Origin: Candidatus Thalassarchaeaceae archaeon
GTDB lineage: Archaea; Thermoplasmatota; Poseidoniia; Poseidoniales; Thalassarchaeaceae
Reading direction: 5' to 3'
Length of the DNA stretch: 64,000 nucleotides
NCBI GenBank assembly: GCA_045568115.1
Contig: JBJLBO010000001.1
Span: forward strand, 82,213-146,212
The notes beneath the pieces are model-generated. The model had not been told where the DNA came from. It worked only from the letters and a program-made list of their open reading frames with translations, and ran no database searches. Positions 3,001 to 34,546 of the stretch are shown piece after piece. Every line of letters starts with the position of its first letter. Positions within the stretch are counted from its first letter, which is position 1. A program made the translations under genes and the position numbers.

Positions 3001-3090
3001 ACAGGTGACTGAGGACGAGTTTGGGAGATGAAGACTAGGCTACTTAGAATAAGTAGTGTTACTAAGAATGCCGTCTGTTTGCGACGCATG
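1..3090 (-). CDS. Large secreted Ca-binding surface protein with thrombospondin type 3-like repeats (DxDxDGxxDxxD); start codon at 3088-3090, 3' end runs off the window (partial)
   Basis: Reverse-strand frame is open from the ATG at 3088-3090 to the window edge, so it is absent from the ORF track. N-terminus MRRKQTAFLVTLLILSSLVFIS has a signal-peptide shape. Many DTDGDGLPDGYE / DSDLDGMSDGWE / DPTDPNDRNRDADSDG repeats. The other minus-strand track ORFs here (260..475, 2174..2452) are in a different frame. Translated by eye, so an internal stop is not fully excluded. Confidence 0.6.
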
Positions 3091-3266
3091 ATATGACCTG
3101 GCCCTATAATATCAAGCGCTCTTGCTTGACTTATGATGGTGATGGAGCGTCGTTCGGACACAAATTAGAATTCGTAATTAATAAGCCACCTCATAATACT
3201 GGAATAATAAGTTTGGATTGATTCTATAGCGTTCAATAATCTAGTCATTTATTTAATCTATAGAGG

Positions 3267-6703: not shown

Positions 6704-9700
6704 TCACTCAACATAATCTGGGTCGGGAATCCATTCTTGCTTCTGAGAGTCCCATAACCAACCGGGATGTTCTGAGGATTCTCCAACATCTTGTTCAGAT
6801 TCCCCTCCTGAGACTTCCTCTTCGAACTCCTCATCATTTTCAACTTCCAATGAAACTAATCCAGAAAGGTAAAGTCCAGCTCCAATTAACACGATTACCA
6901 CAATCGCAATAATTCCAATTACAGAAATATCCATGCCCTCGCTCTTTATTGACGGAGATATTGGAGTGCCTTCGATTGGAGATGAGCCACTAACCGAGAA
7001 AGTAGGGGCAATAGTTTTTGTAATCATTGAACCTGGAATTCCAATTATCCAAGTTGAATCATTACTAACCACAGTAGAATTTACCTGAATGCCGCCCAAC
7101 TTGACAGTTATCGCTTTCCCAGGAAGTCCTGTCCCTGTAAATACAGCAACTTCATCCGAAGAGAAAGTGGTCTTTTCTGGTTCATTAACTGTGAAAGACA
7201 TTGCCACAATTTCAAAGGATACTGGAGAAGAAATTTCTTTCGAGCCATGCTCATCTGTAGCTACAAATATCACATTATCAAGGGCCCAATTTGCCATATT
7301 ATCGTCATAGAAACGCATTGAGACCGGATCAAATACAGTCTCACCGTCAATTCCTACATTGATTACAACTCCGAACAGATCGTCAGCAGTACCCTCCACT
7401 CCATCATCGTATACAGATACGTAGAGATTTTCTATACCATCTAAGTCATCAAAATAATCGTACAAATTGAATCGAGCCTTTGTACATTGATCAAGAGATT
7501 GTGAATCAATTTCGCAATACAGAGTGTGCTGAGAAACCCAATTCGAATTGTCAAATGTTGGCTGATTATTATTTATTATCAGAGGATTGTCGGCAGTAAT
7601 CTGAATCTCCAACCAATCACTATAATCATAACCATCGTACGACCTTACTCTAATGTCATATTGATGATTATGATCCATATACATTCCAGAGTTCCATTCT
7701 AATATCCAAGAATCATCACTTTCAATATCGCTAACTACTCCATTGTAAACAATAATATTTCCATCTGTGACATCTATTACTTCTATATCCACTCTAGTAA
7801 TTTCTCCATCAAAATCAACAGCTGCACCCTCAATCGTTGTCAGTGGACCTGCAGAGTAGATTTGTCCATCCTGAGGAGAAATGAGGCTGACATATGGCGC
7901 AGAATTCCTATTATCAATTGTCAAGTCAATAACTACCGGAGTGCATTCATCAATTACGCCTAAACAGAAATCAGAGTCTGAAGCCCAAAAAAGGAATGAA
8001 TAATCAGATGATATCCTCGGCATCCCAGAAAAGTCCCATGACCAAGACCACTGAGTCCCACCCTCGGTTTCAGTTACAACGTGATAGTTCGGGCCTTGAA
8101 TTTCAACAAAAATACTAGAGATATCGACTCCACAGTTTGAAGGACATCCATACGAATCCTGAGCAAAACCGTCAAAGTTCACTACACCATCTGAATGTGT
8201 TGAACCCGAACTTGGAGAATTTACACTAATCGCTGGAGCAATTGTGTTCAATTTTATGGTGACACTGATGGTATCTGAGTAAACTAAACCATCAAATGAT
8301 CTAACCTGAAATGTGTAGTCGCCTTCTTGCATATTACTCATATCAATCTCGTAAGACCAACTGCTGAACGGATGATTATTTCTTGATACATGACCAAACT
8401 CAGAACCACTTGTATCTGTAGCAATTCCGGCTTGGCTCCATTCACTAGTAAGTGGATCCTTGACTTCAACAGAGTGGACATAACCTTGTTGATCCCACTG
8501 AGCGAGTTCGTCATTTTCGTAAATCCCTGCCCATTGACCATCAAAAGCAGATCCAGTCAGAGAAACTATTCTCCTAAACGATTTGCCATCATCTTGAGTT
8601 ACTGAAATTGAAGGAGGGAGGTTGACTAATGAAATGGTATCTTGATATGTTTGATCGGAGAGAGTGAATTGCCCCGAATCATAACCAAAACCAAATTTAT
8701 ATGCAGTAAATCTGTAAAGTGATAATTCCCGAGTTCCTGCCGAATGATCACAGTCGGGATCATCAGTATCTAGTAGTAAATCTCCATCATTATCTTCACC
8801 ATCAGAACACGAATCTTCATATTCATCATCTGCAAATCCATCGGGATTGTCTCCCCCTTGAAGTCCTCTAAAGTCAAGATGGAAATTCGAGGCTAGGGCA
8901 AACCACGGAGTATATCCGTCACTATCAGTTTCAAGACTGTAAAGATCATTTCCTAGAGCATCTTCGATCAGAATATTAGCATCCTCAACCCTTTCACCAT
9001 TAACAAGTGTTTGGAATCTTACTAATTCAGCTCTCTGAACTTGGACTGAATATTTAGTAGGTTGAGTGTTTATCTTTATATGAGACAAACTAATCTCTCC
9101 CGATAGATTTGAGAACGTGAAAACAGTAGAATTGTTGTCCATGTTCAAAGCCAATGGGAAGTCTCTTGGAGTATAATCAGGACAAGAGGCACATGCCTTG
9201 ACTTCAGTAGGTATAATTCCATTCTGCCAATTGTTCCCATAATGTGCTTCCTGATCATCCCAACTCAAAATCACAGGAGATTCCCCAGACTGTGGTGTAG
9301 AGATATACTCGGATTGCACTGTAACCGAAGATTTGGAAACATTATATGTTACGTCAACACCATTCCATTCATTATTAGAAAAGAATGCTAATGTCCCATA
9401 CTGCTGTGAACCAGCCTGACCATTGTTGTAATGCTGAAGAATCGCGCCGACACCCGATACATTGAATTCGTTCCGTCTAACATCTAAGATTCCGCCAGTC
9501 GATCTTATGGCGCCGGCTTCTCCAGTTGCACTTATCGCATTGTCGACTATTGTCGCTCCGGTTCTATGGACCATTATGGCAGGACACGGGAAATTCCCAC
9601 CCCACCAAGCATTACTCTGACAAACACTTGAACCATCCATCTCAATTGTGTTATTTGCGAAGTACAGGCGAGCGATACTAGGGGAACCGCCACTGCCATA

Positions 9701-10948
9701 TCTTCCTGCCACAACAGGTTCACGGCCCGTTTGCAGAATCGTATTGTTCTCCGCAACGACATCATATTCATCGAATAACCAAAGGCCATTCCAACCATCG
9801 ATTGGCCCAATTGTATTATTGTGAATATTTGCTATTGAACCCTTAATTGCAATTCCGGAACTATCTCCAGATCCTGAAATCTGATTATTATTTATGTTTA
9901 CAAGCGCATTATCATAGCCAGTTATTCCAGCACCTTCTATGGTTTCAATCAAATTATTTTCGATTTCGACGGTGTATTTTGCCCCACCAACAGATTTCGC
10001 ACCATAAACGTCAATCCCATTACAATTTACGTTAAACGTTACATTAGATACGACTCCGGCAGAACTTCGAATACTAAATCCATAATCGCCACTAATTACT
10101 GCAGAGTCCTCAATCCGAATAAAAGTCTCAGAGGCCCAAATCGCTGAACGTCCACCATCTCTCTGCCCGCATCCATTGTTTGTACTTTGGAAGTGTGAAT
10201 CTCGGAAAATCATAGGAGAAATTGGAGTTCCACCGCCATAAACTTGCACTGCTTGGCCGGCAACATCATTCTCTACGTCATTCCCAGCAATATAATCTCC
10301 ACCTAAAAATATAGGCTGAGCGAGATTAGTTGCTAGAACACTTGATGTTGCAATATTTTCGAAAGTCATCTCTTCCAATGTTGGACTAGCTCCATCAAGA
10401 ATTAGTGCTGCAAATTTATACTGATTTACAAGTTGGACATAAAATGGAATCCCCCAAGCACCTTGAAAGTGTAAATGCTGCATTCCAGACTGTGAAAGAT
10501 CCATTGAATCACGGAGAATAATACCCTCGCCACAAGAAGGATCTTCAATCCAAACCTTATTGCTTCCAGAACCTAACCCATAACATTCACCAGTGGCGCT
10601 TTCATTTTCGGGTTCTTGCCAATCTAGCAAGATAAAAGAAGATTGATCTGCATTAGAACTGGCTCCACAAGCTTGGAGACCAGCACATAGATTCCCACGT
10701 ATATCAAGAGATGTCCCATTAGGGAAGGAGATAATAGAACCCGGTTCTATTATCAGCTTAGCACCAGGAGATACTGTTACATCGCCTGTTAACTGATGTT
10801 GGCCACTCCAGACCTCAGTTCCTGTGATTGTACCGCTAGCAGTCTCATTTGCTGCCATTACTGGATAGGTGGGCCCTAATAGGGCCACCATAGTACTAGA
10901 AATCATCAGAAAAACAAGCATCTGACTTCGTGTTCTATCACCGAACAT
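6704..10948 (-). CDS. Cell-surface protein with right-handed parallel beta-helix (pectin-lyase-fold) repeats, N-terminal signal peptide, C-terminal TM anchor and acidic cytoplasmic tail; rich in N-x-S/T sequons
   Basis: Signal-like N-terminus MLVFLMISSTMVALLG. Repeated NNTI/NNQISGSGDSSGIAIKGS.../IHNNTIGPIDG beta-helix motifs. TM ISVIGIIAIVVIVLIGAGLYL followed by an ~55-aa acidic tail. Confidence 0.6.
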   Translation of the reverse strand: MFGDRTRSQMLVFLMISSTMVALLGPTYPVMAANETASGTITGTEVWSGQHQLTGDVTVSPGAKLIIEPGSIISFPNGTSLDIRGNLCAGLQACGASSNADQSSFILLDWQEPENESATGECYGLGSGSNKVWIEDPSCGEGIILRDSMDLSQSGMQHLHFQGAWGIPFYVQLVNQYKFAALILDGASPTLEEMTFENIATSSVLATNLAQPIFLGGDYIAGNDVENDVAGQAVQVYGGGTPISPMIFRDSHFQSTNNGCGQRDGGRSAIWASETFIRIEDSAVISGDYGFSIRSSAGVVSNVTFNVNCNGIDVYGAKSVGGAKYTVEIENNLIETIEGAGITGYDNALVNINNNQISGSGDSSGIAIKGSIANIHNNTIGPIDGWNGLWLFDEYDVVAENNTILQTGREPVVAGRYGSGGSPSIARLYFANNTIEMDGSSVCQSNAWWGGNFPCPAIMVHRTGATIVDNAISATGEAGAIRSTGGILDVRRNEFNVSGVGAILQHYNNGQAGSQQYGTLAFFSNNEWNGVDVTYNVSKSSVTVQSEYISTPQSGESPVILSWDDQEAHYGNNWQNGIIPTEVKACASCPDYTPRDFPLALNMDNNSTVFTFSNLSGEISLSHIKINTQPTKYSVQVQRAELVRFQTLVNGERVEDANILIEDALGNDLYSLETDSDGYTPWFALASNFHLDFRGLQGGDNPDGFADDEYEDSCSDGEDNDGDLLLDTDDPDCDHSAGTRELSLYRFTAYKFGFGYDSGQFTLSDQTYQDTISLVNLPPSISVTQDDGKSFRRIVSLTGSAFDGQWAGIYENDELAQWDQQGYVHSVEVKDPLTSEWSQAGIATDTSGSEFGHVSRNNHPFSSWSYEIDMSNMQEGDYTFQVRSFDGLVYSDTISVTIKLNTIAPAISVNSPSSGSTHSDGVVNFDGFAQDSYGCPSNCGVDISSIFVEIQGPNYHVVTETEGGTQWSWSWDFSGMPRISSDYSFLFWASDSDFCLGVIDECTPVVIDLTIDNRNSAPYVSLISPQDGQIYSAGPLTTIEGAAVDFDGEITRVDIEVIDVTDGNIIVYNGVVSDIESDDSWILEWNSGMYMDHNHQYDIRVRSYDGYDYSDWLEIQITADNPLIINNNQPTFDNSNWVSQHTLYCEIDSQSLDQCTKARFNLYDYFDDLDGIENLYVSVYDDGVEGTADDLFGVVINVGIDGETVFDPVSMRFYDDNMANWALDNVIFVATDEHGSKEISSPVSFEIVAMSFTVNEPEKTTFSSDEVAVFTGTGLPGKAITVKLGGIQVNSTVVSNDSTWIIGIPGSMITKTIAPTFSVSGSSPIEGTPISPSIKSEGMDISVIGIIAIVVIVLIGAGLYLSGLVSLEVENDEEFEEEVSGGESEQDVGESSEHPGWLWDSQKQEWIPDPDYVE

Positions 10949-10971
10949 GGCTTTGGGGATACTACAGCGGA

Positions 10972-10980
10972 TTTAATTAC
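10972..10980 (-). promoter_or_regulatory. TATA-like element (TAATTAAAT on the minus strand) about 25-30 nt upstream of the 6704..10948 start codon; suggests a leaderless or short-leader archaeal transcript
   Basis: AT-rich octamer at the expected archaeal TATA distance from the ATG. The sequence alone cannot confirm it. Confidence 0.25.
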
Positions 10981-11043
10981 AGTGGTGACAAGTGTGTGGA
11001 ACACAATGATGAGCATTTGGAAATTAAAAGAAAAATAAGAAAG

Positions 11044-12267
11044 TTATTGCTCTAATTCGAATCCAACATTTTCAGACCATCTAACGACATTTAATTCGCC
11101 ATATCCATTTTTCAGGTCATGAGAAGAATCAGAATTCATAGCAGAATTTGCTAGGGCACGCTTAACAAGAAACATCCCCTCTTGATCAATTTCTCCATTA
11201 TCGCCACGAAGTTTTTCACCATGAATTTCAAGAATTATTGCTAAAGCTGATGATACAAGAACCGTTGAATCCGAAGTCCCACTAGAATAAGCATAAGATG
11301 GTTTTATTGATGTAGAAACCGTCGAAAAAATCATCACACCTGGTGCTGTCACCTCTGGCTTTTGATTTGGATATTGGCGAAGTTCTCCGGTACTAGGATC
11401 CTGTTCTGAACCCATTGAACTATTTCTCCATACTTCACCGTTTCTTGTTGTCGCACCAACTGCAATTACGCGCTCAATATTAGCAGGAGTAGATACATCA
11501 CTAACCGAAGATTCAATTCCATTATTTCCTGCAGCAGCCACAACAAATACTCCTGCATCCAGTGCTTCATTAACGGCCACTGAAGTTTCAGACTCAAAAC
11601 CTCCTGTACTTCCATCTGGATCACCTCCAAGACTTAGGCTGATTATATCGACATTCTGAGAAATCCAGCACCAACGAATAGCACTTGCAACGCTATCAAT
11701 CTGCCCTGCAGATCCATCTGGCCCTAAAGCAATTGCAATTGATACGGAAACTTCGGGTGCAGCACCAACATAGGTACTATTCGCTAACATCAATCCTGCC
11801 ATTTGAGTCCCATGATAATTTTGACCTACATCTCTAACTTCATCATTCTTCTCAACATAAAAATCACGGAAACCCACGAGATTTACTCCAGAAAATTCAG
11901 GATGATTTATGTCAATCCCAGTGTCTACAATGCATACATGTACCCCTTCTCCAAAGTAGCCCTCAGATTGTATTTCTCTAAATCCTGAATTTTCATAGGC
12001 CCACTCTGAGTCAGGTAGAATCGGAGCAATATAGGCTTGTATCCAGGGCCATGAAATAAGCAGTAAAATAGTTCCAATTGAGAACGACACTGCACCCCAA
12101 GGCCAAAGAAATTCTTTCATCTGACCTACTGGCCATCTCAACTCCCTAGCTTCTTGATCACTGATCCCATAGGCAGCACCAAGATAACCTGGTGCATCGG
12201 GGTCAACTGCAGTCAGAAGCCTAGTGTCTTCAGGCTCTGGCATCAACTCAAGATGTTCTATGACCAT
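11044..12267 (-). CDS. Subtilisin-like serine protease (peptidase S8) with N-terminal signal-anchor
   Basis: Catalytic-triad contexts HVCIVDTGID (Asp), HGTQMAG (His), GTSDST-like Ser region. TM FLWPWGAVSFSIGTILLLISWPW near the N-terminus. Confidence 0.75.
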   Translation of the reverse strand: MVIEHLELMPEPEDTRLLTAVDPDAPGYLGAAYGISDQEARELRWPVGQMKEFLWPWGAVSFSIGTILLLISWPWIQAYIAPILPDSEWAYENSGFREIQSEGYFGEGVHVCIVDTGIDINHPEFSGVNLVGFRDFYVEKNDEVRDVGQNYHGTQMAGLMLANSTYVGAAPEVSVSIAIALGPDGSAGQIDSVASAIRWCWISQNVDIISLSLGGDPDGSTGGFESETSVAVNEALDAGVFVVAAAGNNGIESSVSDVSTPANIERVIAVGATTRNGEVWRNSSMGSEQDPSTGELRQYPNQKPEVTAPGVMIFSTVSTSIKPSYAYSSGTSDSTVLVSSALAIILEIHGEKLRGDNGEIDQEGMFLVKRALANSAMNSDSSHDLKNGYGELNVVRWSENVGFELEQ

Positions 12268-12322
12268 GTCCTCGCCGATTCGCCTGCTACTCTACTAATG
12301 AGAATTTGTGTTAATATAACTC

Positions 12323-15300
12323 TCAGAATGGAGCACCGGGTCGTCGGGAACCGCCCCTTGTAAGATACCAACCCGCTAGAAGAAGCATTGCAACAAGAAC
12401 CCACATAATTGAACTAGTAGCAGTAGAGTCATCTACTGCTGGAGATTTCATAGTATACCTCTTTGGATCAAATTTATCAGATTCCTCGTTGACATCATCG
12501 CCCTCTAGGATAAAATCAACCCAAATATCATCAGGTTGGTCGAATGAAGTCATATCAAGATCTATGAAAACGAACTCTTCATTTCCAGCAGCAACATCTA
12601 CGGTTCTCGTAGTATTTATCGAAGTTCCTCTAATTGTAGCATTTACAGTGATTTGAGAAGCATCAACTAAGCCATTATTCTCAACAGTAACAATGAATGA
12701 ATTATACTGACCAAAGATGACATCAGAAGAAGAAACATCTGTGATTTCGGGATTTGGTAAGGATGTTTGCACATGAATAGGGATAGCTGGGTAACTACCT
12801 CCATTCTTATCTGTCACAGATACGCTAATTGTGAAATCCTCGTCTCCAGTCGCATTAAGAGGTGCTTTCACCTTAACTGTATGAGTCGTATCGGAAAAAG
12901 CACCCAAAGTATGGCTTGTAGAACCGGTCCTAAGCCAATTAGTTGGTAATTGACTATCATCAAATTCAAACTCAAACTTTTCATCACCGTTTCCGGTATT
13001 GGTAAACATAATTGGGATTTCTAATTCCTGCCCAGGTCGTATTCCATAAACTTCTAGCATTTCCTCTGTTAACTCAAATCCATGATGTTGCGGCACTCTC
13101 AATTTCAACTCGTGCTGGACCATATATCCGTCCTGTGAGCTGAATTTGATTGCAACCATATGTCCGTCAGATAGAGACCGGGCAGTAGACCAATTTGCAG
13201 GCTCAATTCTAACCTTGAGTTCCAAAGAAGTATTATCATTTTGTAGACCTAAGTTGAATGAGAATTGATTCTGCCATGACTCTCCTGTACTATTGTAGAA
13301 ACTTACATTCCAAAAATCGCCATCAGATCCAGGGACACTGCCTAATACTGAATATGTAGAAACAGTTTCGTGGCCTAGATAATCTAACAAGATTGTGAAC
13401 TCAACAGGGGTGTATTCTTCATCAATAAACAATATTTCTACATCTGAAATATCTCCATCCGATGCATTTCCACCAATCATAACAGTAGTATGTGTGTCAA
13501 TCTCATGGCTCGAACTTCGAGTGAAAGTAAGTTCATTGCTTACGGATGCAATGATACCAGTACTTGAAGATGGAATATTGATATTATTTGCTGCTTCATA
13601 ACTCATATCCCTATCCATTTGAGGCGACAGGAACTCACTATTTATTTCAGCAGAACCTGATGGCAGAAGAATTGAGAACCCTCCACTATCATCTAATATT
13701 GCATCCCACTCAAGACCATTACCAAGCGAAATTGTGAATTCAAGCTCAAAGACACCTTCAGAAGATAGATTATGAGATGAACCATCATAATCAATCCATT
13801 GAGAGACTAAGTCTAACCATCCTCCAAAGATAAGTTCAGAATCAACAGAACCACCTTCAGAAATATCAGCATCAACAATAGACATTGCTACAAGATTCAA
13901 ACTTTCTACAGAAGCTGAGATAATCCACTCTCCTGGCTCAACGGATGCATACCAAGCACCGTGCCAAGCACCATTTTCCATTACTAGTGTTGGAGTTACA
14001 CGATCCCTAACCAATCCCTGAGTTGGAATTAATTCCAGAACAATTTCAGAAGCAAAATCGTGGATATTGGAGTGTGTAATGTTTCCAAATATCTCAACTT
14101 GTCCTGCTGTAAGCTCAATTTCAACAGAGTTTGGTGCACTCATTGATATTGATTCACTCTCGTCTGAAAACCCTAATCTATTGGTTAAAACAAGCCAACT
14201 TGTGTTCACTGGGACATAGACATTCCAATCTCCAGCACTATCAGTTACTAAAGAAATATTATCTAAGCCATCACTAGTCATTATTACAGTAGCATTAGGC
14301 ACCCCTTCACCTACATCGGCATCATCATCGTCATCATGATCCCAGAAAATAGTCCCCGACATCTCAACCAATGTTGAAACAGACAAGTTTATCTGACCAT
14401 TCTGGCCTCTTTGTAGACCATCTTGAATAAGTTCTATTGATTCAACTAAGTATCTTGTTCGTTCAACTGTTTGGTTAACTTCAACATTCCACGAACCAGG
14501 ATAAAGGATTCCCTCAGAAAGACCTGATGCATCAGATAAATCGAGATGGACTTTACCAAGTCCTTCATTTGACGTTAAAGTAATATCCAAATTATCAACT
14601 GGGTTATTTTCCTCATCGGACATAAGCACTGTGAATGTTGCCATCTCACTTGTAGAAAGAGTGTGGTTCAGGTTAGCATTTGCCTCGGAGACTGTAAGTA
14701 ATGTACGCAACCCTTCCTCTACACCTTCATCTGAAGTAATTGAATCAATAACAACAATCCATTCACCCTCTGGAAGATGGTCTATGATTGAACCACTGGA
14801 ATCTGTTACTCGAGAAAGAATCCATCCAGTTTCTGAATTAATAAATTTGACATTCTGACTGACTAATTCAGAGCCTACATAATCTGTAATATTCAGACTG
14901 ACTCGCCATTCAGGTTCAAAACCGATATATCTAGATACGGAATCATCGGAGAAGCCAACATCGACACTTGTATCTCCAGTGAGTATCATAGTTCCAAACA
15001 ATTCATACAATTCTGGATCTGACAATTGAACGTCAATCCTGTAAGAGCCTGCCTCTATTGGAACCAAAGCATGCCCGAAGGAAGTCCAAACTAATTCATC
15101 AGAAGAAGAGATATTGTAATCCATACCTGCGTTGTTTAGTGATATTAATGAGAAATCATATTGCACAGGAGAACCATTACTAACATTATTGTCGCCACTG
15201 TAATCAAGGAAGAAATCAATTTCAACGTAAGAATTTTCAGGGAATGAAAGCAAATCGATAGTATCATTCTCGCCATCAACAATTAGGTGAGTTTCTGAAA

Positions 15301-18300
15301 TATTAAGCCAAGTCACATCTGTTGTGAAGGACCATTCACCAGGAGGTAGATCCGAGCTGAATGTACCATCTTCAAGTAATTCCATTACCCATATTGCCTC
15401 ATAAGTATCATGTGTCGCGAAAACAGTAGTGGGTTCCCAACCAATAAGATCGGAGGAGAATAAATTTCCGACTCTATTGACATTGATTGCGCCATTGACT
15501 TCGAATCCAGATTTAGCAACCATACTGATGTTTTCCATACCATCAGTAACGGTAAATCTAGTACCATTGACTTTATTCTGAACTCCAGCAAAAACGAAAG
15601 CATCTACGGTGACACCAATTGGTAATTCTACGTTGAATACTCCTTCGCTACCAGTAGTAGTAGTTGTAGAAAATCCATCCCAATAAAACTCAACGGTTCC
15701 GCCTTCAATAGGAACTAAAACACTGGTCTCTTCTGTTTCATTTGTTTGTACATTAATTGCTTCTTCAATTGATTCGTACTCAACTGACCCAGTCACAGTA
15801 GTAGATTCATGGAAAGTGAAATTATATTCAGAATCGGACTCAACAACAATTCTCTCCCAAAGTTGCATCATGGAATCGGATATATCTGAACTCAATACCC
15901 ATTCGCCTTCAATTAATTCAACATAGTAATGTCCATGCTCTGAATCATAAATTGCTATAACATCAGAATTAGAACCATCAACACTAGTCATTGTAACGTT
16001 AGCATCGATGACATTTACCTCTGTACCATTATCCATCCTGTCAAGATTGAAAGAAATGTCGTAAGTAACGGGTATTGGGGTTGGGAATTCAACAGAGGTT
16101 CCTTCCTCAGCGTCGAACACATGAGATATTTCGGCTTCACTGAAGCCATCCGAATCCATGTCTAGAACTACTGTGTAGTTTCCAGGAATAACAGGCCCAT
16201 AGCTGAACAAACCAGAATCGTCAGAAGAAATTGTGCAAGGAGCGAAGTAAACTTCTGAGCACTCACCATTTGTAATTACCGTGGTGTTATTAGCATGATA
16301 TAAGATTACAGAATCGACTAAATTATTACCATTAGAATCAACTAGCGTACCGTTAACAAATCCTCCAGATACATCAATCTCATTTGGAGCTATAGTACCA
16401 GAATATGGCACAGTGAATCCATCAAGAATATCAATCTTAGAGCCATCAGAAAATACAACTGAGACATCATATTTACCAGGAATAGCGCCCATAAGATGGA
16501 AAGTGCCTTCATTGACCATCTCTCCACTAAAGTGTCCCTCTCCACTAAACATTCCAGTTCCATTTATTGTACCATATGACTCTAGTGAATCATCACTTGA
16601 ATCGACTACAAATATCCCCGAGCCAGAAAGAGAGGAACCATTCAATGTCTGTGTAAAAGACGAGGTCCCATTGGATGTGAACTTTCCAGTAGCATTCACG
16701 ATTCCCTCAATTAGGTAATTATCTAATGATAATGAACAAATGCTGTGATTTTCAAGCATTGTTCCATTTTGGTTACAATTTTCGACTTCAATGGTGTCAT
16801 CAATTGTACCCACTAGTGTCCCGATTCCATTGAATTCACCATCTCCAGAAAGGCTGTGGCCATTGAGGATATTTTGTGTATATGTACCAACAAAATTTTC
16901 AATTGTTGCAATTTCTGTTGTTGTCACAGAGCCTGCGCCGGTAAATGTGACCTCACCAGAACCTTGGAATGTCAAATCAGAACCAGAAACTGTTCCCGTA
17001 GATGTTTCGAGAGTAATTGGAGGAAGAGAAATTTTATCCCATGAAGGAGATAATTCTACAACTGCGTTTGTGATAGCTTCTCCTGAAAATTGATCATGGC
17101 CATCCCATGTTAATAGTCCAGTTGCAAACGATGGCGCCACAAGTATGTCTGCATCAATATGGGATTCGCCATTACTATGACCATCTAAGCCAGATATATT
17201 GACTATTGTTTCCGCTAACCACTGTGAGCCGGAAACGTTTCCAAGGATTCCTGTTATTGGATTTATGCGACGTTCATCTGAGTAAGATTCTGTGGCGACA
17301 TCTTGTAGCATCCCCACTGACCCACCAGATAACTGAGATCGTGCAATGTCTAAATCAGGTTCACCAAAGAAAGCACTAACTCGAATTTTTCCAGCTGGAG
17401 CAATAAAGGAGTAAGCGCCGTTTTCATCCGCATCTACTGTACCTATTGGGATCCAATAAGTTCGCTGATCTCTATCAATTACATTTCCATCAGCATCAGC
17501 AATTTCTTCGCCACTAAAGGCATCTCTCTCTATTAAGATACGAGCGTTAGGGATTGGTCCTATTCCATCTAATTCAACAGTTCCTTCAATAGTCGCACCA
17601 CTGTAGTACTTGACAACCTTGACATTAGTATTTGCACGTCCAATTGCTGAGTACCCACCATCAAAGACATCCGGGATGCTGTTATTATCCTCATCAGGAG
17701 AATCGGAACCATCGTCATACCAATTTGCAATTACGAAATGATTCATCATTGCTCCAGGGAGTGGATATGCATTCTGAAGAGCTGAATTTGGAGTTCCAGT
17801 TGTACCCCAAGTAGGACCGGGTTGCACCACATCTCCAGATAGGCCTAAACTAGTACTGCCATAACCAACGTAAATTCTAGCAATCATTGTTTCGAAGAAG
17901 TCTTCAGTATGAGTGTATCGTATATCATTTAGACGTATGATTTGAGAGGAATCAGTTAGAGAACCTGATTGTTGTGCAACGATATCGGCCAAGTATGCTT
18001 TTTCATATGCTTCAGCGGACATTATTATTTCTGGATCAGAGCCTTTCTGAGTAATATATTCAGAAATCATATAGTCATTTGGATCAAGGCCAGACAAAGT
18101 AGTTGGCGCATAGAAAATCCCTGTAGTTTGGCCACGGTGATAACTTGAATCCTCGTAATACTTTCCACCTAGAGGATACAATCTGTCATCTACTGCGAAA
18201 TAACGGATATCATTAGTTCGAACTATTGTCTCGCCTGTTTGTCCCTCATAATCCTGTACCTCATACTCTATAGAAGTGCTCAAATCATGATAAAGATCCA

Positions 18301-21300
18301 CGATTTGATCAAGTGATAGAATCGTATTCAAGAATAAACGTGACAAGGCAAGGCGAGAATTGGCTCGGTGGAGGTGAGTGGAGATATCATCGAATTCTTC
18401 AATTAAGTCACTAGTATACCTATAATCTCCTATGTAATAGTGAGATATATCAAAAGAAATATCTTGGATGTTTTGGCACCGACCACCTGTCGATACAAAA
18501 GATGCGGCATCACATGGTAATGAATCGTTAAATGAATTCCTTGCAGCAGACTCATCATTCGTTTTGTTCCCAATTATAATACCGTTTTCTGTAACTTGCC
18601 AACTTGGCTCCATTGGAAGTCCATTCGAATCTATTTCAGAACCATATAATATCTCTAGAGAAACTGATTCACCAAATTGATTCACACCAGCAGCATGCGA
18701 ATATACAGCCAATGAGCGTGCTTCAACGAAAGAAGAGTCACCCATTCCGTAAGACATTATTGCTTCAAACTCACCTTTCTGCTCCTCAGTCATATATTCA
18801 TCAAGTATTCCTGAGAATTCATTCGTGAAGCCTGAGTCTGATTGATCATAACTCCTGTCGCCTTGAGCAAGGGTAGTGATGAATAAGGCAAGCGTATCCT
18901 CCTGACCAGAGGACAGTAACATACCTCCACTTTGTGGAATCCCTGTCTGGAAGTTATCTGCTACAGTTGGATGTTCTCCTGAATCAAGAGCTTGGAAACC
19001 ATAGTCCCACCATGAAACAAATGCAGGACGATTACCAAAGGGAACTTCAGAGTCCTGCTCAGATAGCCACTCATAGGCTAAATTCCATCCTCCGCCATTG
19101 AAACCAGGGCCAAATGTCCCCATGTACCAACAACCGTTTCCACATGATTCCGAGGGATTATGGTCAGAACTATCGAATAGAGAAAGACCTAAGGCCTCAT
19201 ATCTAAATATATCAGGAGTGAAATCATAAATGGTTTGGTCAACATCACTCGATGCAGTTTCTCCTCTAGGAATTCCTGAATCCAGCCCATAAGTTAGATG
19301 CTGAGAAGCAATTAACATGAAAACAAGCATTAATGCAGGAATCATTGGATGCTTCTGGCTAGCAGGACGAATTGAATTGAAGCGAGTACGCGGAGTACCA
19401 ATACCTGATCGGCGCCACTCCTTGACAAAGCCAGAGAAATTTGCCATCTTCCATAAAGACGAAATTCCTAGAGCACCTACTATTGCAATAGCAGGTGTTG
19501 CATTGAAGATAAATCGACCTGCAGACCATGCCATATAGATGGATATCAGAACCCAAAGACCAAGAAGGGATTTACCTTGTTTTTCATCTCGAGCCCCTCT
19601 CCAGAGAAGTATGAATGAATAACCCACTGCTATGAGAGCAACTACGGGTCCGTATGAAGCAAATAAAACCCCGCGACTAGGTGCCTGTGCTTCACCAATT
19701 GTTCCAAAAATCTTGTTCTTTGAGAAATAGAATCCACCGGTAAACAAAATGTCCCAGCCATCATAAATCTCTGCTTCTTGGAGTATCCATAGAATTGAAA
19801 GAATTCCTCCAAATAGAGCAATTCCACTACCTAGAATCAACAACCAAGGTTTATCTCGGAAAGAACAAGAAACCCATCCGAGAGCAAAGGTGAATCCTAC
19901 AATGTAAAACATTGGTTGGAAACCACTAGGAGCCATAAGAAGATTCATCTCAGGCCATATGTAGAATGGTAATGGCATAATGAATGTAGTTAGCATCATC
20001 TGCAAAGCTACAGAAGTCAATGGGAGGCTGTCCCTCCTGCGGAACATATTAAGTAGAATTTGGACTGAAAATGCAAGAAAGAGAATTCCTGGACCGTAAA
20101 CAAATCCTTTCCAACCTAGTGCAACAGTTGAGAAACTAATTCCAGCCAAAGTTGCATTTGCCATCGATTGAGGATTTCTGCGCCACATCTCTCGTATTCC
20201 TGCAATCAAATACAGTGGATTTGGGCTTGGATTTATGAAAAGCCTCTCATTACTAATTTTATCAATTGCAGTAACCCAGAAGTAAAAGGCTAGCGTAAGG
20301 AAAAGTAGAGCAAATGAATCGTGATCTGCAAGAGCAAATGTGGAATGACTAATGTGTCCTGGCATTAAAGCCATTAACCAAGCAGCTATAATTCCAGCCT
20401 GATTACTGTGCAAACGACGAGAAAGCCCAGATACAGGTAGGACAATCAAGGCACCAAATATAGCGGGGAATAACGCTACTGACCACCAAACTGACTCATC
20501 AGTTGACATTCCAGTGACCCACTCAATTGCGATTCCTCCAAGAGCTAAACACCAAGAGAAAAGAGGGGGTCGTGGATTAATTCCACCCATAGGATAAGCT
20601 CTATCTGCATCAAAAATCAAATGTGTTTGATTAGCTACTATGTAGTCGACTACCCGCTTCATGTACCAAGGGTCAGAACCCCCAGTCATATCCCACAAAC
20701 CAGTAATATTAGCATTCATTGCTGGAAGAACATTCCATCCGGTTCGAACTAAGAATCCGACTATCAAGGCAGAACCAACTAGTATGGAATAACTGTTGGC
20801 TTGCCACCATTGTCTAAACTTACTGGGTTCCCTTCGCGGAGAAATATCACCGAAATAACCTCTTGAAGCTATTAATGCAGCACCGACATTCAACCAAAAG
20901 GTTAGGCCAAACCATGTCCAAGTGCTAGCCGTATCGTTATTACCAAGGAATGTTAGACTAGTAGGTAGGTTGTTTCCAATCTCCACTAGGTGTGCCATTG
21001 TATAAATCACCCAGTTTATTGCAACAATAGATCCGATTACGTGCCATCTTTCAGTTCTACAGAATGCGACAAAAAGAATCACAATTGATGTTGCTAGTGC
21101 CCAGACAGAACCTAGGTAATGATGAGACTCGAATATATCAGCTTCAGTAATTCCTGAAAGCCATAATACAGGGACTAGATTTACAACAAATAGACTGATA
21201 GACGTTGCAATAAATTCTGTACTGGTTTTCCACTCAATAGACTCAGGAATTGCTGAAAATAGATTGTTTTTCCCTGATTCATCCAAATATCCACGAAATA

Positions 21301-21856
21301 GTATTGTTAGGATAGTCCCTAAAACTATTGAAAGGATCCAGAATGCGAAGAAATTCGCCCCTATTCCGGCTCTCTGAATATCGATTAATTGATTACTCTG
21401 CAAGACTGCTTCCTCGGCAAGAGATAGCTCTGGCATCCCTGCAGCATAAGATACTGCAAGATGGAATCCAACTACAATAGATAGCAAAATAGTAGCTTCT
21501 TCATTCCGATTAGCTTGAATCAAGAATGTTGTAGAAATACCCATGAAAGCAAAGGTCGAAATTACAATCGGATCGACCAATGAAAAGAAGTCCATTACCA
21601 CGGCCACAGCAACAAAAGCGAATGAATAAACTAAGAATTTGTTTGGTGTTGCAATTATTCCAATCCTTCCCAAAGCAGCTGCAGTAGCAGCTGCAACGGG
21701 GAGGACGACTAACTTTCCAATATCAATCATCACATCGTCAGCGAAGGCAGTTACTCCAAAGAACAAGACCAGAAGTCCTGCAAGTACCAAAGGAGCTGTT
21801 GCGACACTCTTCATTGAGTTCGCAGCGGCCTCCGCATTTCCTTTTTCATACGACAT
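12323..21856 (-). CDS. aglB: Giant (3177 aa) AglB/STT3-type oligosaccharyltransferase fusion: extra N-terminal polytopic membrane domain + STT3 core + ~1900 aa of CarboxypepD_reg/Ig-like beta-sandwich repeats + C-terminal TM
   Basis: STT3 signatures: the WWDYG motif inside PAFVSWWDYGFQ, and the EL1 DPWY motif inside SDPWYMKRVVDY, which resembles the eukaryotic STT3 motif EFDPWFNYR. More than 20 predicted TM helices lie in the first ~880 aa. Downstream are repeated DADGNxxxRDQRTYWIPIGTVDADENGAYSFIAPAGKIRVSA-type CarboxypepD_reg-like units. C-terminal TM IMWVLVAMLLLAGWYL. Confidence 0.7.
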   Translation of the reverse strand: MSYEKGNAEAAANSMKSVATAPLVLAGLLVLFFGVTAFADDVMIDIGKLVVLPVAAATAAALGRIGIIATPNKFLVYSFAFVAVAVVMDFFSLVDPIVISTFAFMGISTTFLIQANRNEEATILLSIVVGFHLAVSYAAGMPELSLAEEAVLQSNQLIDIQRAGIGANFFAFWILSIVLGTILTILFRGYLDESGKNNLFSAIPESIEWKTSTEFIATSISLFVVNLVPVLWLSGITEADIFESHHYLGSVWALATSIVILFVAFCRTERWHVIGSIVAINWVIYTMAHLVEIGNNLPTSLTFLGNNDTASTWTWFGLTFWLNVGAALIASRGYFGDISPRREPSKFRQWWQANSYSILVGSALIVGFLVRTGWNVLPAMNANITGLWDMTGGSDPWYMKRVVDYIVANQTHLIFDADRAYPMGGINPRPPLFSWCLALGGIAIEWVTGMSTDESVWWSVALFPAIFGALIVLPVSGLSRRLHSNQAGIIAAWLMALMPGHISHSTFALADHDSFALLFLTLAFYFWVTAIDKISNERLFINPSPNPLYLIAGIREMWRRNPQSMANATLAGISFSTVALGWKGFVYGPGILFLAFSVQILLNMFRRRDSLPLTSVALQMMLTTFIMPLPFYIWPEMNLLMAPSGFQPMFYIVGFTFALGWVSCSFRDKPWLLILGSGIALFGGILSILWILQEAEIYDGWDILFTGGFYFSKNKIFGTIGEAQAPSRGVLFASYGPVVALIAVGYSFILLWRGARDEKQGKSLLGLWVLISIYMAWSAGRFIFNATPAIAIVGALGISSLWKMANFSGFVKEWRRSGIGTPRTRFNSIRPASQKHPMIPALMLVFMLIASQHLTYGLDSGIPRGETASSDVDQTIYDFTPDIFRYEALGLSLFDSSDHNPSESCGNGCWYMGTFGPGFNGGGWNLAYEWLSEQDSEVPFGNRPAFVSWWDYGFQALDSGEHPTVADNFQTGIPQSGGMLLSSGQEDTLALFITTLAQGDRSYDQSDSGFTNEFSGILDEYMTEEQKGEFEAIMSYGMGDSSFVEARSLAVYSHAAGVNQFGESVSLEILYGSEIDSNGLPMEPSWQVTENGIIIGNKTNDESAARNSFNDSLPCDAASFVSTGGRCQNIQDISFDISHYYIGDYRYTSDLIEEFDDISTHLHRANSRLALSRLFLNTILSLDQIVDLYHDLSTSIEYEVQDYEGQTGETIVRTNDIRYFAVDDRLYPLGGKYYEDSSYHRGQTTGIFYAPTTLSGLDPNDYMISEYITQKGSDPEIIMSAEAYEKAYLADIVAQQSGSLTDSSQIIRLNDIRYTHTEDFFETMIARIYVGYGSTSLGLSGDVVQPGPTWGTTGTPNSALQNAYPLPGAMMNHFVIANWYDDGSDSPDEDNNSIPDVFDGGYSAIGRANTNVKVVKYYSGATIEGTVELDGIGPIPNARILIERDAFSGEEIADADGNVIDRDQRTYWIPIGTVDADENGAYSFIAPAGKIRVSAFFGEPDLDIARSQLSGGSVGMLQDVATESYSDERRINPITGILGNVSGSQWLAETIVNISGLDGHSNGESHIDADILVAPSFATGLLTWDGHDQFSGEAITNAVVELSPSWDKISLPPITLETSTGTVSGSDLTFQGSGEVTFTGAGSVTTTEIATIENFVGTYTQNILNGHSLSGDGEFNGIGTLVGTIDDTIEVENCNQNGTMLENHSICSLSLDNYLIEGIVNATGKFTSNGTSSFTQTLNGSSLSGSGIFVVDSSDDSLESYGTINGTGMFSGEGHFSGEMVNEGTFHLMGAIPGKYDVSVVFSDGSKIDILDGFTVPYSGTIAPNEIDVSGGFVNGTLVDSNGNNLVDSVILYHANNTTVITNGECSEVYFAPCTISSDDSGLFSYGPVIPGNYTVVLDMDSDGFSEAEISHVFDAEEGTSVEFPTPIPVTYDISFNLDRMDNGTEVNVIDANVTMTSVDGSNSDVIAIYDSEHGHYYVELIEGEWVLSSDISDSMMQLWERIVVESDSEYNFTFHESTTVTGSVEYESIEEAINVQTNETEETSVLVPIEGGTVEFYWDGFSTTTTTGSEGVFNVELPIGVTVDAFVFAGVQNKVNGTRFTVTDGMENISMVAKSGFEVNGAINVNRVGNLFSSDLIGWEPTTVFATHDTYEAIWVMELLEDGTFSSDLPPGEWSFTTDVTWLNISETHLIVDGENDTIDLLSFPENSYVEIDFFLDYSGDNNVSNGSPVQYDFSLISLNNAGMDYNISSSDELVWTSFGHALVPIEAGSYRIDVQLSDPELYELFGTMILTGDTSVDVGFSDDSVSRYIGFEPEWRVSLNITDYVGSELVSQNVKFINSETGWILSRVTDSSGSIIDHLPEGEWIVVIDSITSDEGVEEGLRTLLTVSEANANLNHTLSTSEMATFTVLMSDEENNPVDNLDITLTSNEGLGKVHLDLSDASGLSEGILYPGSWNVEVNQTVERTRYLVESIELIQDGLQRGQNGQINLSVSTLVEMSGTIFWDHDDDDDADVGEGVPNATVIMTSDGLDNISLVTDSAGDWNVYVPVNTSWLVLTNRLGFSDESESISMSAPNSVEIELTAGQVEIFGNITHSNIHDFASEIVLELIPTQGLVRDRVTPTLVMENGAWHGAWYASVEPGEWIISASVESLNLVAMSIVDADISEGGSVDSELIFGGWLDLVSQWIDYDGSSHNLSSEGVFELEFTISLGNGLEWDAILDDSGGFSILLPSGSAEINSEFLSPQMDRDMSYEAANNINIPSSSTGIIASVSNELTFTRSSSHEIDTHTTVMIGGNASDGDISDVEILFIDEEYTPVEFTILLDYLGHETVSTYSVLGSVPGSDGDFWNVSFYNSTGESWQNQFSFNLGLQNDNTSLELKVRIEPANWSTARSLSDGHMVAIKFSSQDGYMVQHELKLRVPQHHGFELTEEMLEVYGIRPGQELEIPIMFTNTGNGDEKFEFEFDDSQLPTNWLRTGSTSHTLGAFSDTTHTVKVKAPLNATGDEDFTISVSVTDKNGGSYPAIPIHVQTSLPNPEITDVSSSDVIFGQYNSFIVTVENNGLVDASQITVNATIRGTSINTTRTVDVAAGNEEFVFIDLDMTSFDQPDDIWVDFILEGDDVNEESDKFDPKRYTMKSPAVDDSTATSSIMWVLVAMLLLAGWYLTRGGSRRPGAPF

Positions 21857-21978
21857 TATTTCTCACCGTCATTTGTGCAGCCTAAAGGCTCAGCAGCGCG
21901 GCGACCTGAAGTCCTGTTATAACCGTTCGCGGTGGTCTCACTACTACGTAGTGTCGCTACATACCAATAATCTAATTT

Positions 21979-23259
21979 TCAAAGTGCTCGATGACCTATG
22001 TCAGAACGGTAGTGAGAACCCTCAAGTTCGATTTCATTCATTAGAGCATAAGAGCACTCTAAAGCCAAGTGTAAATTAGGAGCAATTGCTGTTGCTGCTA
22101 GCACCCTACCTCCAGTTGACAATAGGCTCCCATCATCTAGTAATTCAGCACCGGCGTAATGAACAAATCCTACAATATCTCCTTCCTCAATCCTTGATTT
22201 AGCACCTTTAATCTCGCGGCCAGTCTCAGAAGATGTAGGGTAACCTTCTGATGCTAGAACTACTGTAACTGCCGATTTATTGCTGAATTTTGGACTAATA
22301 CCTGAAAGATTACCTTCGGCCGTAGCCAGAAGTAACTCACCGAGATCATTCTCAATTAATGGAATAGTCACCTGTGTTTCAGGATCTCCAAAACGAACAT
22401 TATACTCAACAACGTTAGGTGCTCCATTTTCATCTATCATCAATCCAACATACAAAACTCCACGATACGGAATCTGCTGGTTTCGAAGGTAGTGGTGCAT
22501 AGGCTCAACAATCTCATCGATTGCTCTTTGACGGACGGCAGGAGTAACTACTGGAGCTGGAGCGTATGCTCCCATGCCGCCAGTGTTTGGACCAGTATCT
22601 CCTTCACCTACTCTTTTGTGATCTTGGCTCGCCGGCAAACAAAGATAGCCCGATTCATCCATTAGAACAAGCATTGAAGCCTCTTCACCAGAAAGAAATT
22701 CCTCGAGTAAAACAAAACCATCCGTTTTTATTGAGTTGGAAATGAACTCAGATGCTTCAACATCATCTGAAGTAACCACGACTCCTTTTCCTGCAGCTAA
22801 TACATCTCTCTTGATTACCCAAGGCGATTCAAAAGTCGCAAGAGCTTTTTTGATATCAGATTCTGCATCAAGAACTAGAACACCTCCAGTTGGAATTCCA
22901 AGATTCTGCATCACTCTCTTAGCGTGAAGTTTTGATCCCTCGAGTGCAGCCCCCTGACTGTGAGGCCCGAAACTTGGAATTCCAATATCTCGTAGATGAT
23001 CAGACAAACCTGCTACTAAAGGGGCCTCGGGTCCAATGACGACAAGGTCTGCACTAATTTCGGAAGCTAATTCTCCAACTGCTACAACGTCTGTAACACT
23101 CACATCGTGATTGATGCCGACTAAAGCAGTTCCAGCATTTCCAGGACAAGCATGCACATCTCCAACTGATTCACTTTCTACAAGACCTATGGCAAGAGCG
23201 TGTTCACGACCACCGCCTCCTACAATGAGTACAGTCATACCTGCCATGTTTGCCCGCAT
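21979..23259 (-). CDS. purD: Phosphoribosylamine--glycine ligase (GAR synthetase); the likely true start is MTVLIVGGGGREHA at 23238
   Basis: N-terminal LIVGGGGREHAL signature. ATP-grasp body. Full-length colinearity with PurD. Confidence 0.9.
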   Translation of the reverse strand: MRANMAGMTVLIVGGGGREHALAIGLVESESVGDVHACPGNAGTALVGINHDVSVTDVVAVGELASEISADLVVIGPEAPLVAGLSDHLRDIGIPSFGPHSQGAALEGSKLHAKRVMQNLGIPTGGVLVLDAESDIKKALATFESPWVIKRDVLAAGKGVVVTSDDVEASEFISNSIKTDGFVLLEEFLSGEEASMLVLMDESGYLCLPASQDHKRVGEGDTGPNTGGMGAYAPAPVVTPAVRQRAIDEIVEPMHHYLRNQQIPYRGVLYVGLMIDENGAPNVVEYNVRFGDPETQVTIPLIENDLGELLLATAEGNLSGISPKFSNKSAVTVVLASEGYPTSSETGREIKGAKSRIEEGDIVGFVHYAGAELLDDGSLLSTGGRVLAATAIAPNLHLALECSYALMNEIELEGSHYRSDIGHRAL

Positions 23260-34461: not shown

Positions 34462-34495
34462 GACTCTAAACACGAAAAATGAGACTGTACTACTT

Positions 34496-34516: not shown

Positions 34517-34546
34517 GTGCACGCTCGCGCGAAGGGTTCAACCGTA

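Follow-up and report, generated by a model that had tools for sequence, protein, structure and literature searches.

A stretch of 64,000 nucleotides (nt) from a Candidatus Thalassarchaeaceae archaeon (Thermoplasmatota; Poseidoniia; Poseidoniales; GenBank assembly GCA_045568115.1, contig JBJLBO010000001.1, positions 82,213 to 146,212 of the forward strand; hereafter the window, numbered from its first letter) contained three consecutive minus-strand genes encoding a giant oligosaccharyltransferase (OST) of the AglB family, a subtilase of peptidase family S8, and a beta-helix (BH) surface protein. An earlier sequence-only reading of the same DNA had described these genes, separated by spacers of 55 nt (aglB-S8) and 95 nt (S8-BH), as a self-contained unit for the production and maturation of a surface glycoprotein. 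Its coordinates and spacers were exact, and its identification of the three products was borne out by Pfam matches above the gathering cut-offs: STT3 in AglB (73.7 bits; PF02516, cut-off 24.5 bits), Peptidase_S8 in the subtilase (141 bits; PF00082, 21.8 bits), and Beta_helix in the 1414-residue protein (38.9 bits; PF13229, 25.9 bits), together with Big_7.

6704-10948, minus strand: BH protein gene, an open reading frame (ORF) of 1414 amino acids (aa)
11044-12267, minus strand: S8 subtilase gene, an ORF of 407 aa
12323-21856, minus strand: aglB, encoding the giant OST, an ORF of 3177 aa

Relatives of the S8 subtilase were gathered from one genome per species, and the proteins of the window were then run by tblastn on those loci. 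The best S8 match was 92% identical, 17 other loci of Marine Group IIb (MGIIb; Thalassarchaeaceae) showed 63-67% identity, and the six most divergent Poseidoniales loci, named Poseidoniaceae (Marine Group IIa, MGIIa) among them, showed 41-46%. These identities assign the window to MGIIb within Marine Group II. The synteny sample comprised 23 Poseidoniales loci (L001-L024, with L021 left out for the upstream flank), and three AglB loci of non-Poseidoniales Thermoplasmatota (L030-L032) formed the outgroup sample.

The giant AglB was predicted to consist of the following regions.

20807-21856, minus strand: AglB aa 1-350, an additional membrane domain at the N-terminus with ~10 helices (AlphaFold2 model), specific to Poseidoniales
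18977-20806, minus strand: AglB aa 351-960, the STT3/AglB catalytic membrane core (Pfam STT3, E 2.7e-20)
17513-18976, minus strand: AglB aa 961-1448, an extracytoplasmic globular region (conservation profile of 18 orthologues)
12446-17512, minus strand: AglB aa 1449-3137, a stalk of transthyretin-like/Ig-like beta-sandwich domains (Pfam matches and sequons)
12326-12445, minus strand: AglB aa 3138-3177, a C-terminal transmembrane (TM) anchor and short basic cytoplasmic tail (hydropathy)

The core aligned with AglB-L of A. fulgidus (3WAJ, E 1.4e-10) and contained the motifs GGSDPWY (~aa 392-398), LADHDSF (aa 509-515), TIGE (aa 719-722), and WWDYG (aa 949-953), which were invariant or conservatively replaced in 18 orthologues (TIGE becoming TVAE in MGIIa). 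These motifs establish that the predicted catalytic core is intact. Like A. fulgidus AglB-L (PDB 3WAJ/5GMY, 868-875 aa), the protein has an STT3 core with first-Asp, DxD-type, TIXE, and WWDYG motifs, followed by an extracytoplasmic domain. In contrast to AglB-L, it is ~3.6 times longer and adds a 350-aa domain of 10 helices that has no detectable relative outside Poseidoniales AglB, a ~200-aa variable insert after WWDYG, and a ~1,690-aa, sequon-enriched, TM-anchored stalk. The insert following WWDYG is large, and the DxxK (DK/MI) motif could not be placed unambiguously by eye; within the globular region, the variable insert spans ~aa 1001-1200 and a conserved part spans aa 1361-1500. The score against TIGR04154, the model of archaeosortase A system-associated STT3 (168.8 bits), lay under the 450-bit cut-off, which leaves the protein outside that subfamily.

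No Pfam match was found for AglB aa 1-350 at E<=1. The AlphaFold2 model of this domain comprised 10 long helices (predicted local distance difference test, pLDDT, 75.8; predicted template modelling score, pTM, 0.74) and found no matching fold in the PDB (best E 0.46). A duplicated STT3 membrane domain was considered and rejected (hhalign probability 0.8%). A profile search of 1.84 billion representative proteins returned 97 matches to the domain; among the long matches, 11 were 3146-3228 aa in length and carried the domain at residues 1 to ~370. No stand-alone homologue was present among these representatives; matches other than the giant AglBs came from truncated AglB sequences or were short fragments. 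The first catalytic Asp motif lay at aa 386-424 in Poseidoniales AglBs versus aa 79-81 in the outgroup AglBs, which begin directly with the STT3 core and lack the extra N-terminal membrane domain.

The stalk matched CarboxypepD_reg in seven of eight orthologues (best E 6e-16), as well as SpaA and SdrD_B, with weak matches to CARDB, NEW3, and Big_1; no tandem repeats were found in the DNA that encodes it. The C-terminal domain of AglB is extracytoplasmic in solved structures, and the stalk is therefore expected to be extracellular, with a membrane attachment at each end. The cytoplasmic tail ends in RRPGAPF, which is invariant in MGIIb, and in a basic ...SRF in MGIIa. Amid moderate conservation, the stalk contains an invariant poly-Asp motif, FWDHDDDDDADVGEGVP (aa ~2505-2521, within 14294-14344), that may be a metal-binding site. 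A conserved cleavage linker was sought at the junction of core and stalk; none was evident, and the junction was among the better conserved stretches.

In the 17 other loci with a complete gene, the giant AglB was an intact ORF of 3167-3211 aa. The stalked AglBs of the outgroup (1842 aa; ~2,360 aa split by frameshifts) resemble it in having the core, CarboxypepD_reg/CARDB domains, a C-terminal TM helix, and a sequon-enriched extension; they differ in their shorter stalks and in the absence of the N-terminal domain, of S8, and of an adjacent beta-helix gene. In two long-read metagenome assemblies (L031, 10001-17084; L032, 10001-17082), the outgroup protein was split into two to three overlapping gene calls, probably as a result of frameshift errors, and AglB and S8 were likewise fragmented in the MGIIa locus L033. 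Many database entries of the AglB family are therefore partial. One COG1287 (STT3) gene was present in the examined part of the annotation table of an MGIIb metagenome-assembled genome (MAG), and AglB looks like the general OST of the lineage rather than a dedicated one.

The distribution of N-glycosylation sequons (N-x-S/T) separated AglB from the BH protein. Expected counts were obtained from shuffles of each protein's own sequence, and the reversed motif [ST]-x-N served as a control. The stalk contained 40 sequons against 20.7 +/- 4.0 expected (z = 4.8; 2.37 per 100 aa), and AglB aa 1-1448 contained 9 against 9.0 expected. Across 18 orthologues, 34-46 stalk sequons were observed against 15-21 expected (z = 4.0-7.0 in all), the forward motif outnumbered the reversed one by 666 to 320, and NxT was commoner than NxS. 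The extensions of outgroup AglBs were also enriched (33 versus 12.1 in L030, z = 7; 26 versus 16.2 in L032). The sole other enriched protein in the window, encoded at 39949-43953 on the minus strand, was a secreted M60-like (enhancin-type) peptidase of 1334 aa that also contains He_PIG Ig domains; it had 20 sequons against 11.0 expected (z = 3.0).

The BH protein, which the sequence-only reading had called sequon-rich, contained 14 sequons against 14.6 +/- 3.4 expected (z = -0.2; 0.99 per 100 aa). Counts at expectation were found in all 18 orthologues (z about -0.3, range -1.3 to +0.2), with 234 forward and 200 reversed sequons in total, and the description thus did not hold. The proposed comparison with cytoplasmic proteins came out in two parts. 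The BH protein was sequon-denser than the twelve cytoplasmic proteins (pooled 0.36 per 100 aa) only because it is rich in N, S, and T, like every secreted protein here, and it was level with the ten other surface or secreted proteins of the window (pooled 0.89 per 100 aa). Six of the 14 BH sequons were conserved across both families, including N34 (N-E-T) immediately after the signal-peptide cleavage site. Because of these six conserved sequons, the BH protein is probably N-glycosylated at a small number of positions, as many archaeal surface proteins are; N302, N401, N536, and N605 are candidate sites besides N34.

The BH protein was indeed secreted by prediction and carried a C-terminal TM helix, as had been described. 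It comprised a signal peptide (aa 1-32), a right-handed beta-helix (~aa 33-560), an acidic double-disulfide/Ca-binding-type repeat (~aa 711-735), Ig-like domains up to aa 1333, a TM segment (aa 1334-1370), and a 44-aa cytoplasmic tail (aa 1371-1414), which makes it a type I membrane protein; a weak match to NF033662 was also found. The AlphaFold2 model of aa 30-700 (pLDDT 86.7, pTM 0.84) showed stacked short strands, with the helix extending to ~aa 560. Foldseek searches of the PDB matched PL6 lyases, GH28/110/136, depolymerases, tailspikes, and Ag43 at E 5e-6 to 1e-3, with probabilities up to 0.9-1.0, TM-scores mostly <= 0.28, and identities of 8-12%. The protein therefore shares its fold class, over aa 33 to ~560, with the beta-helix carbohydrate-active enzymes (CAZymes; PL6, GH28/GH110/GH136), capsule depolymerases, phage tailspikes, and the adhesin Ag43. 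It differs from the CAZymes in its ~10% identity, in the absence of a family match and of identified catalytic residues, and in its fused Ig-like domains, TM helix, and conserved tail. Assignment to PL6 alginate lyases or to another specific CAZyme family was rejected, since no CAZyme match was obtained in Pfam or NCBIfam and the fold class alone was assignable. A total of 184 BH homologues were found; the 120 listed were 1072-1480 aa in length with 41-90% identity, and among those listed with a named source, all were from Poseidoniales or other Thermoplasmatota.

The cytoplasmic tail of the BH protein and the gene downstream of it showed conservation of their own.

6719-6769, minus strand: BH tail motif HPGWLWD-x5-W[VI]PDP, aa 1394-1410, its core identical in 18 orthologues of both families
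4112-6643, minus strand: gene for an 843-aa protein with a winged helix-turn-helix (wHTH), an AAA_16 STAND NTPase domain, and TPRs, of MalT/AfsR-like architecture

Apart from this motif, the tail was variable (tail peptide HPGWLWDSQKQEWIPDPDYVE). The motif occurred once in a six-frame translation of the window, and in an alignment of 33 sequences the conservation of its G, W, W, D, and W reached at least 90%. The STAND gene, which the sequence-only reading had omitted, always lay immediately downstream of the BH gene and was its tightest partner. The gap between the two genes measured ~58-61 nt in the majority of MGIIb loci (60 nt in the window) and 16 nt in MGIIa, where it included a Shine-Dalgarno-like motif. 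Conservation within the block was highest for STAND (81-84% identity in MGIIb, 50% in MGIIa). Its only Pfam/NCBIfam matches above the cut-offs were TPR_12, TPR_1, TPR_2, TPR_21, and AAA_16; the N-terminus was wHTH-like by sequence, the TPR domain spanned aa ~550-843, and a published annotation table assigned the protein to arCOG03047 (COG category K). As in MalT and the AfsR/SARP-LAL regulators, an AAA_16 NTPase is followed by a TPR sensor and combined with a DNA-binding domain. Unlike in MalT/AfsR, the wHTH is N-terminal, the equivalog scores were far below the cut-offs, and the partner is a single-pass membrane protein rather than a known soluble ligand. A metallo-beta-lactamase (MBL)-fold hydrolase gene on the plus strand (3267-4115) converges on the STAND gene with a 4-nt overlap and gave weak matches to the Avs1a, LmuA, and DRT MBL models (<= 27 bits). 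A defence system formed by STAND, MBL, and subtilase was considered and rejected, because the genes are core and syntenic rather than part of a variable island, and because the PADLOC matches of the STAND, MBL, S8, and BH proteins were weak (generic matches <= 27 bits; a generic subtilase model, 72.6 bits).

The S8 subtilase was organized as follows.

12097-12267, minus strand: cytoplasmic N-terminus, aa 1-57
12028-12096, minus strand: TM helix, aa 58-80, a single hydrophobic helix by hydropathy
11047-12018, minus strand: outward-facing catalytic domain, aa 84-407

The single helix with the domain right after it agrees with the earlier description of S8 as membrane-anchored. The match to Peptidase_S8 (E 6.4e-41) was accompanied by Asp115, His152, Asn248, and Ser332, kept in 21 orthologues, which constitute the catalytic triad and oxyanion Asn. 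Residue 99 aligns with residue 16 of mature subtilisin BPN' and the domain starts directly after the TM helix, and there is thus no room for a prodomain. The Pfam scan gave no I9 propeptide match, and the protein departs from a classical secreted subtilisin, with its I9 propeptide and cleavable signal peptide. The cytoplasmic segment contains a motif, LPEPxxxR[IL]L[TS]A[VI]DP, that was conserved in both families. On these features, S8 is predicted to be a propeptide-free subtilase with a type II membrane anchor. The best NCBIfam profiles were those of processing subtilases (mycosin, 1.3e-27; PatA/G; QhpE), all far below their cut-offs; against the mycosin model TIGR03921, the score was 96.9 bits versus a cut-off of 278.75. 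S8 shares with the mycosin of type VII secretion, PatA/PatG, QhpE, and BPN' the fold and the full tetrad, and as in several processing subtilases it is tethered and has no I9 prodomain. It differs from the processing subtilases in its N-terminal type II anchor, its conserved cytoplasmic segment, and its scores.

The gene order was conserved far beyond the three genes.

21979-23259: purD, in the upstream flank of aglB
23306-23983: carS, in the upstream flank beyond purD

Wherever the flank sufficed, the tblastn searches recovered the order purD-aglB-S8-BH-STAND in both Poseidoniales families. Between the families, at least 13 genes formed a syntenic block (o28403-o27116-o25804-o24110-carS-purD-aglB-S8-BH-STAND-(MBL)-TSP3), which continues beyond STAND into the MBL-fold gene and a large thrombospondin type 3 (TSP3)-repeat protein, with a three-gene insertion in one lineage. 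The same arrangement appears in a published annotation table, where genes 303-309 of SIMO Bin 19-2 are carS, purD, aglB (9,538 nt), a "halolysin", an unannotated gene, a TPR protein, and an MBL-fold protein. The order proposed for checking is therefore kept across Poseidoniales; it discriminates little, since purD and carS are conserved equally. Because the syntenic block around aglB, S8, and BH numbers at least 13 genes and takes in the unrelated purD and carS, the adjacency of the three is weak evidence of coupling. No S8 gene was present in the 10-kb flanks of the three outgroup AglB loci, and none of the three had an adjacent beta-helix gene; in L030, an unrelated NosD-type beta-helix gene lay ~4.6 kb upstream with several genes between. 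No agl glycosyltransferase or flippase gene was found near aglB among the ORFs scanned from 3267 to 43953. The neighbours of aglB are purD, carS, S8, the BH protein, and STAND, and the locus is not an agl gene cluster.

The non-coding intervals contained several promoter-like and palindromic elements.

21857-21978, minus strand: aglB promoter/5' leader in the purD-aglB spacer, 83% mean column identity in 14 MGIIb loci
21939-21953: leader palindrome CACTAC-GTA-GTAGTG
21917-21922: TTATAA of the BRE/TATA-like leader element GAACGGTTATAACAG
21878-21891: leader palindrome GAGCCTTTAGGCTG
21862-21867: leader Shine-Dalgarno-like GGTGAG, GGTGA(T/G) across MGIIb
12268-12322, minus strand: spacer between aglB and S8 (55 nt), in which GAGG precedes the S8 ATG by 4 nt
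10949-11043, minus strand: S8-BH spacer, with a T-rich terminator-like tract at 11021-11043 and the TATA-like TAATTAAAT box at 10971-10979

The proteins that flank the aglB leader were only 53-74% identical across the same 14 MGIIb loci. Its palindromes were kept with one compensatory pair only, and because of this a hairpin RNA and a dimeric protein site are indistinguishable. The MGIIa leader was different and was likewise conserved and hairpin-bearing. Orthologous aglB-S8 spacers were 54-85 nt long, with Shine-Dalgarno-like GGAGG/GGTGA and no T-tract. On the other side of S8, the T-rich tract directly follows the stop codon and the TAATTAAAT box lies 22 nt before the BH ATG, as the sequence-only reading had noted. 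A TATA-like box (CCTATGATTAAATC) and T-rich tracts recurred in the S8-BH spacer of most of the MGIIb loci read, and conserved TATA-like boxes preceded BH and, in MGIIb, STAND. The short spacer, the Shine-Dalgarno-like site, and the T-tract after S8 together suggest that S8 is probably co-transcribed with aglB. These motifs point to a division into two predicted transcription units, one of aglB and S8 and one of BH (and STAND), which may be co-regulated; this fits the earlier idea of coupled but separable units.

In 14 of 17 MGIIb loci (L002-L018; e.g., L008:11268-11280), the BH box was preceded at a distance of ~10 nt by a palindrome, GAGCC-TAC-GGCTC, which was absent from the S8-BH spacer of this window. 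This palindrome is related to the GAGCCTT(T/C)AGGCTG of the aglB leader. The 64-kb window contained the pattern GAGCC-N2-5-GGCT[CG] at one place, the aglB leader; in the 21-kb loci the pattern was almost confined to the aglB leader and the BH promoter (~0.1 occurrences per 21 kb expected by chance). In published metatranscriptomes, aglB rose with the activity of genus O1 in situ (log2 fold change +2.05, adjusted p 0.062); the BH orthologue showed +1.91 (not significant), the STAND orthologue showed -0.05, and S8 was outside the tested set (Damashek et al., 2021, PMC9723583).

No RNA genes, Rfam families, or tandem repeats were found within the three-gene region. Besides three minus-strand tRNA genes, tRNA-Met(CAT) at 28194-28270, tRNA-Asn(GTT) at 48165-48240, and tRNA-Ala(TGC) at 60733-60809, the Rfam scan of the 64-kb window found no family at gathering score. 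Other genes of the window encode large surface or membrane proteins. On the plus strand, these are a 917-aa protein (31708-34461) that has TM helices near both termini and matches the CD36 family in Pfam above gathering score (E 1.4e-9), a 1065-aa membrane protein (34424-37621) in which two lamin-tail domains and a PLD-like phosphodiesterase domain are combined with a long cytoplasmic tail, and a large secreted protein with acidic Ca-binding-type (TSP3-like) repeats and 29.5% Asp+Glu (45342-48164). CD36 is known mainly as a eukaryotic scavenger-receptor/lipid-transfer family. On the minus strand, a secreted TSP3-like repeat protein of at least 1054 aa (3-3164) runs off the left edge; its orthologue in L034 is >1900 aa.

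The reading favored here, held tentatively at a probability of about 0.45, is that the locus is a conserved Poseidoniales envelope neighbourhood centred on a general giant OST with a self-glycosylated stalk, and not a dedicated unit of substrate and machinery. AglB would be a general N-oligosaccharyltransferase that gained an orphan 10-helix N-terminal domain and a ~1,690-aa stalk with a second membrane anchor. Given sequons at twice chance and the preference for NxT, it would glycosylate the stalk that it carries itself or the stalks of adjacent copies, and would so become a major glycan-coated, doubly anchored surface protein. S8, an outward-facing tethered subtilase probably transcribed together with aglB, may act on surface proteins as a processing enzyme or may degrade exogenous protein. 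The BH protein would start its own transcription unit and count among the ordinary N-glycoproteins that AglB modifies; at the cell surface it probably binds or cleaves a polysaccharide, and its invariant tail likely couples to the downstream wHTH-STAND-TPR regulator. The adjacency of the genes would be largely inherited synteny.

Several points weigh against this reading. The positions of the stalk sequons turn over, with 20% kept between families, no better than non-sequon Asn. As an indirect indication, such turnover may fit selection that acts on the density of glycans and not on individual sites. Glycosylation of the stalk is probable as judged from sequon counts, the STT3 copy number comes from part of one MAG table, and the two transcription units are predicted from sequence motifs. 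The palindrome shared by the aglB leader and the BH promoter hints at co-regulation of the two genes, which is nearer to the view of the sequence-only reading. Furthermore, the adjacency of aglB, S8, and BH arose in the ancestor of Poseidoniales together with the N-terminal domain of AglB, and a functional link could underlie it.

The self-contained line, in which AglB glycosylates the BH protein and S8 matures it, is quite improbable. Its closest known counterpart is the Haloferax volcanii S-layer glycoprotein, which undergoes N-glycosylation by AglB and processing by the archaeosortase ArtA with C-terminal anchoring. The Haloferax AglB, ArtA, and S-layer genes do not form one cluster, and ArtA is sortase-like and acts on PGF-CTERM rather than being a subtilase; no PGF-CTERM-like signal was seen here when C-termini were read by eye, without a formal search. 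The conserved order and orientation across the order speak for such a line, as do the common membrane face of the three products, the six conserved BH sequons with N34 beside the signal-peptidase site, the palindromic element common to the aglB and BH promoter regions of most MGIIb loci, and the upward trend of both aglB and the BH orthologue in O1-active metatranscriptomes. They are set against a BH sequon count that equals both the composition expectation and the reversed-motif control, an enrichment that belongs to AglB's own stalk, equally conserved but unrelated neighbours in purD and carS, outgroup stalked AglBs without both neighbours, a T-tract and separate promoter between S8 and BH, and the absence of nearby agl pathway genes. 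A maturation role of S8 on AglB itself, cutting the enzyme from the stalk or shedding the stalk so that a separate OST and a C-terminally anchored coat glycoprotein result, is distinctly unlikely as well. The spacer features fit co-transcription of aglB and S8 in both families, S8 is tethered, without a prodomain, and equipped with a conserved cytoplasmic segment, its best (sub-threshold) NCBIfam profiles are those of processing subtilases, and S8 adjacency and the AglB N-terminal domain co-occur in Poseidoniales only. However, the well-conserved core-stalk junction has no conserved linker or cleavage motif, and outgroup AglBs retain the stalk without an adjacent S8. In addition, the S8 genes of Marine Group II (MGII), one to four per genome, have been read as extracellular nutritional peptidases (Orellana et al., 2019, PMC6864105).

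The remaining alternatives give STAND a larger part. S8, BH, and STAND may form an outside-in signalling module in which the BH protein senses polysaccharide and the protease and tail signal to the STAND TPR sensor and on to transcription, aglB being a mere neighbour. This possibility is given a low chance. It would account for the invariant BH motif in an otherwise variable cytoplasmic segment and for the constant adjacency of BH and STAND (with the 16-nt spacer and Shine-Dalgarno-like site of MGIIa), and it agrees with the wHTH, AAA_16, and MalT-like TPR domains of the block's most conserved gene, with a beta-helix fold class typical of glycan-binding or -cleaving proteins, and with the palindromes near the aglB and BH promoters. 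On the other hand, a characterised precedent for the architecture was not found in this analysis, the STAND transcript did not follow BH (-0.05 versus +1.91), and the palindrome is absent from the BH promoter of this window. An equally unlikely but bolder version would make AglB a ~24-helix OST fused to its main substrate, its own 1,690-aa stalk, anchored at either end, forming the glycan coat of planktonic archaea that lack an S-layer; the co-transcribed S8 would trim or release the stalk, and STAND, reading the BH tail, would co-regulate the aglB and BH promoters through the shared palindrome.

The favored reading, a general giant OST within an inherited envelope neighbourhood, leaves the sequence-only observation partly confirmed, with the sequon-rich BH protein as the exception, and its interpretation as a dedicated factory partly supported. 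The products do share the outer face and the BH protein is probably an N-glycoprotein, but processing of either neighbour by S8 found no support. The unit did not prove self-contained: no glycosyltransferase or flippase lies nearby, AglB looks general, and BH is not enriched in sequons. For annotation, conserved order and a raw sequon density above that of cytoplasmic proteins are both seen at this locus, and neither separates a dedicated module from the effects of inherited gene order and of the composition typical of secreted proteins.

In the surface ocean, Marine Group II ranks among the most abundant archaeal groups; its members are uncultured, and their cell envelope is essentially unknown. 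In an open-access literature search, AglB/STT3 of Poseidoniales was not discussed, and only supplementary aglB annotation and one differential-expression row were found. The AglB described here is an unusual OST that is probably self-modifying. A stalk is common to other Thermoplasmatota, and the theme may therefore predate Poseidoniales. A single giant AglB with a sequon-dense stalk, present across the order, is thus a concrete candidate for the surface glycan coat of Marine Group II.

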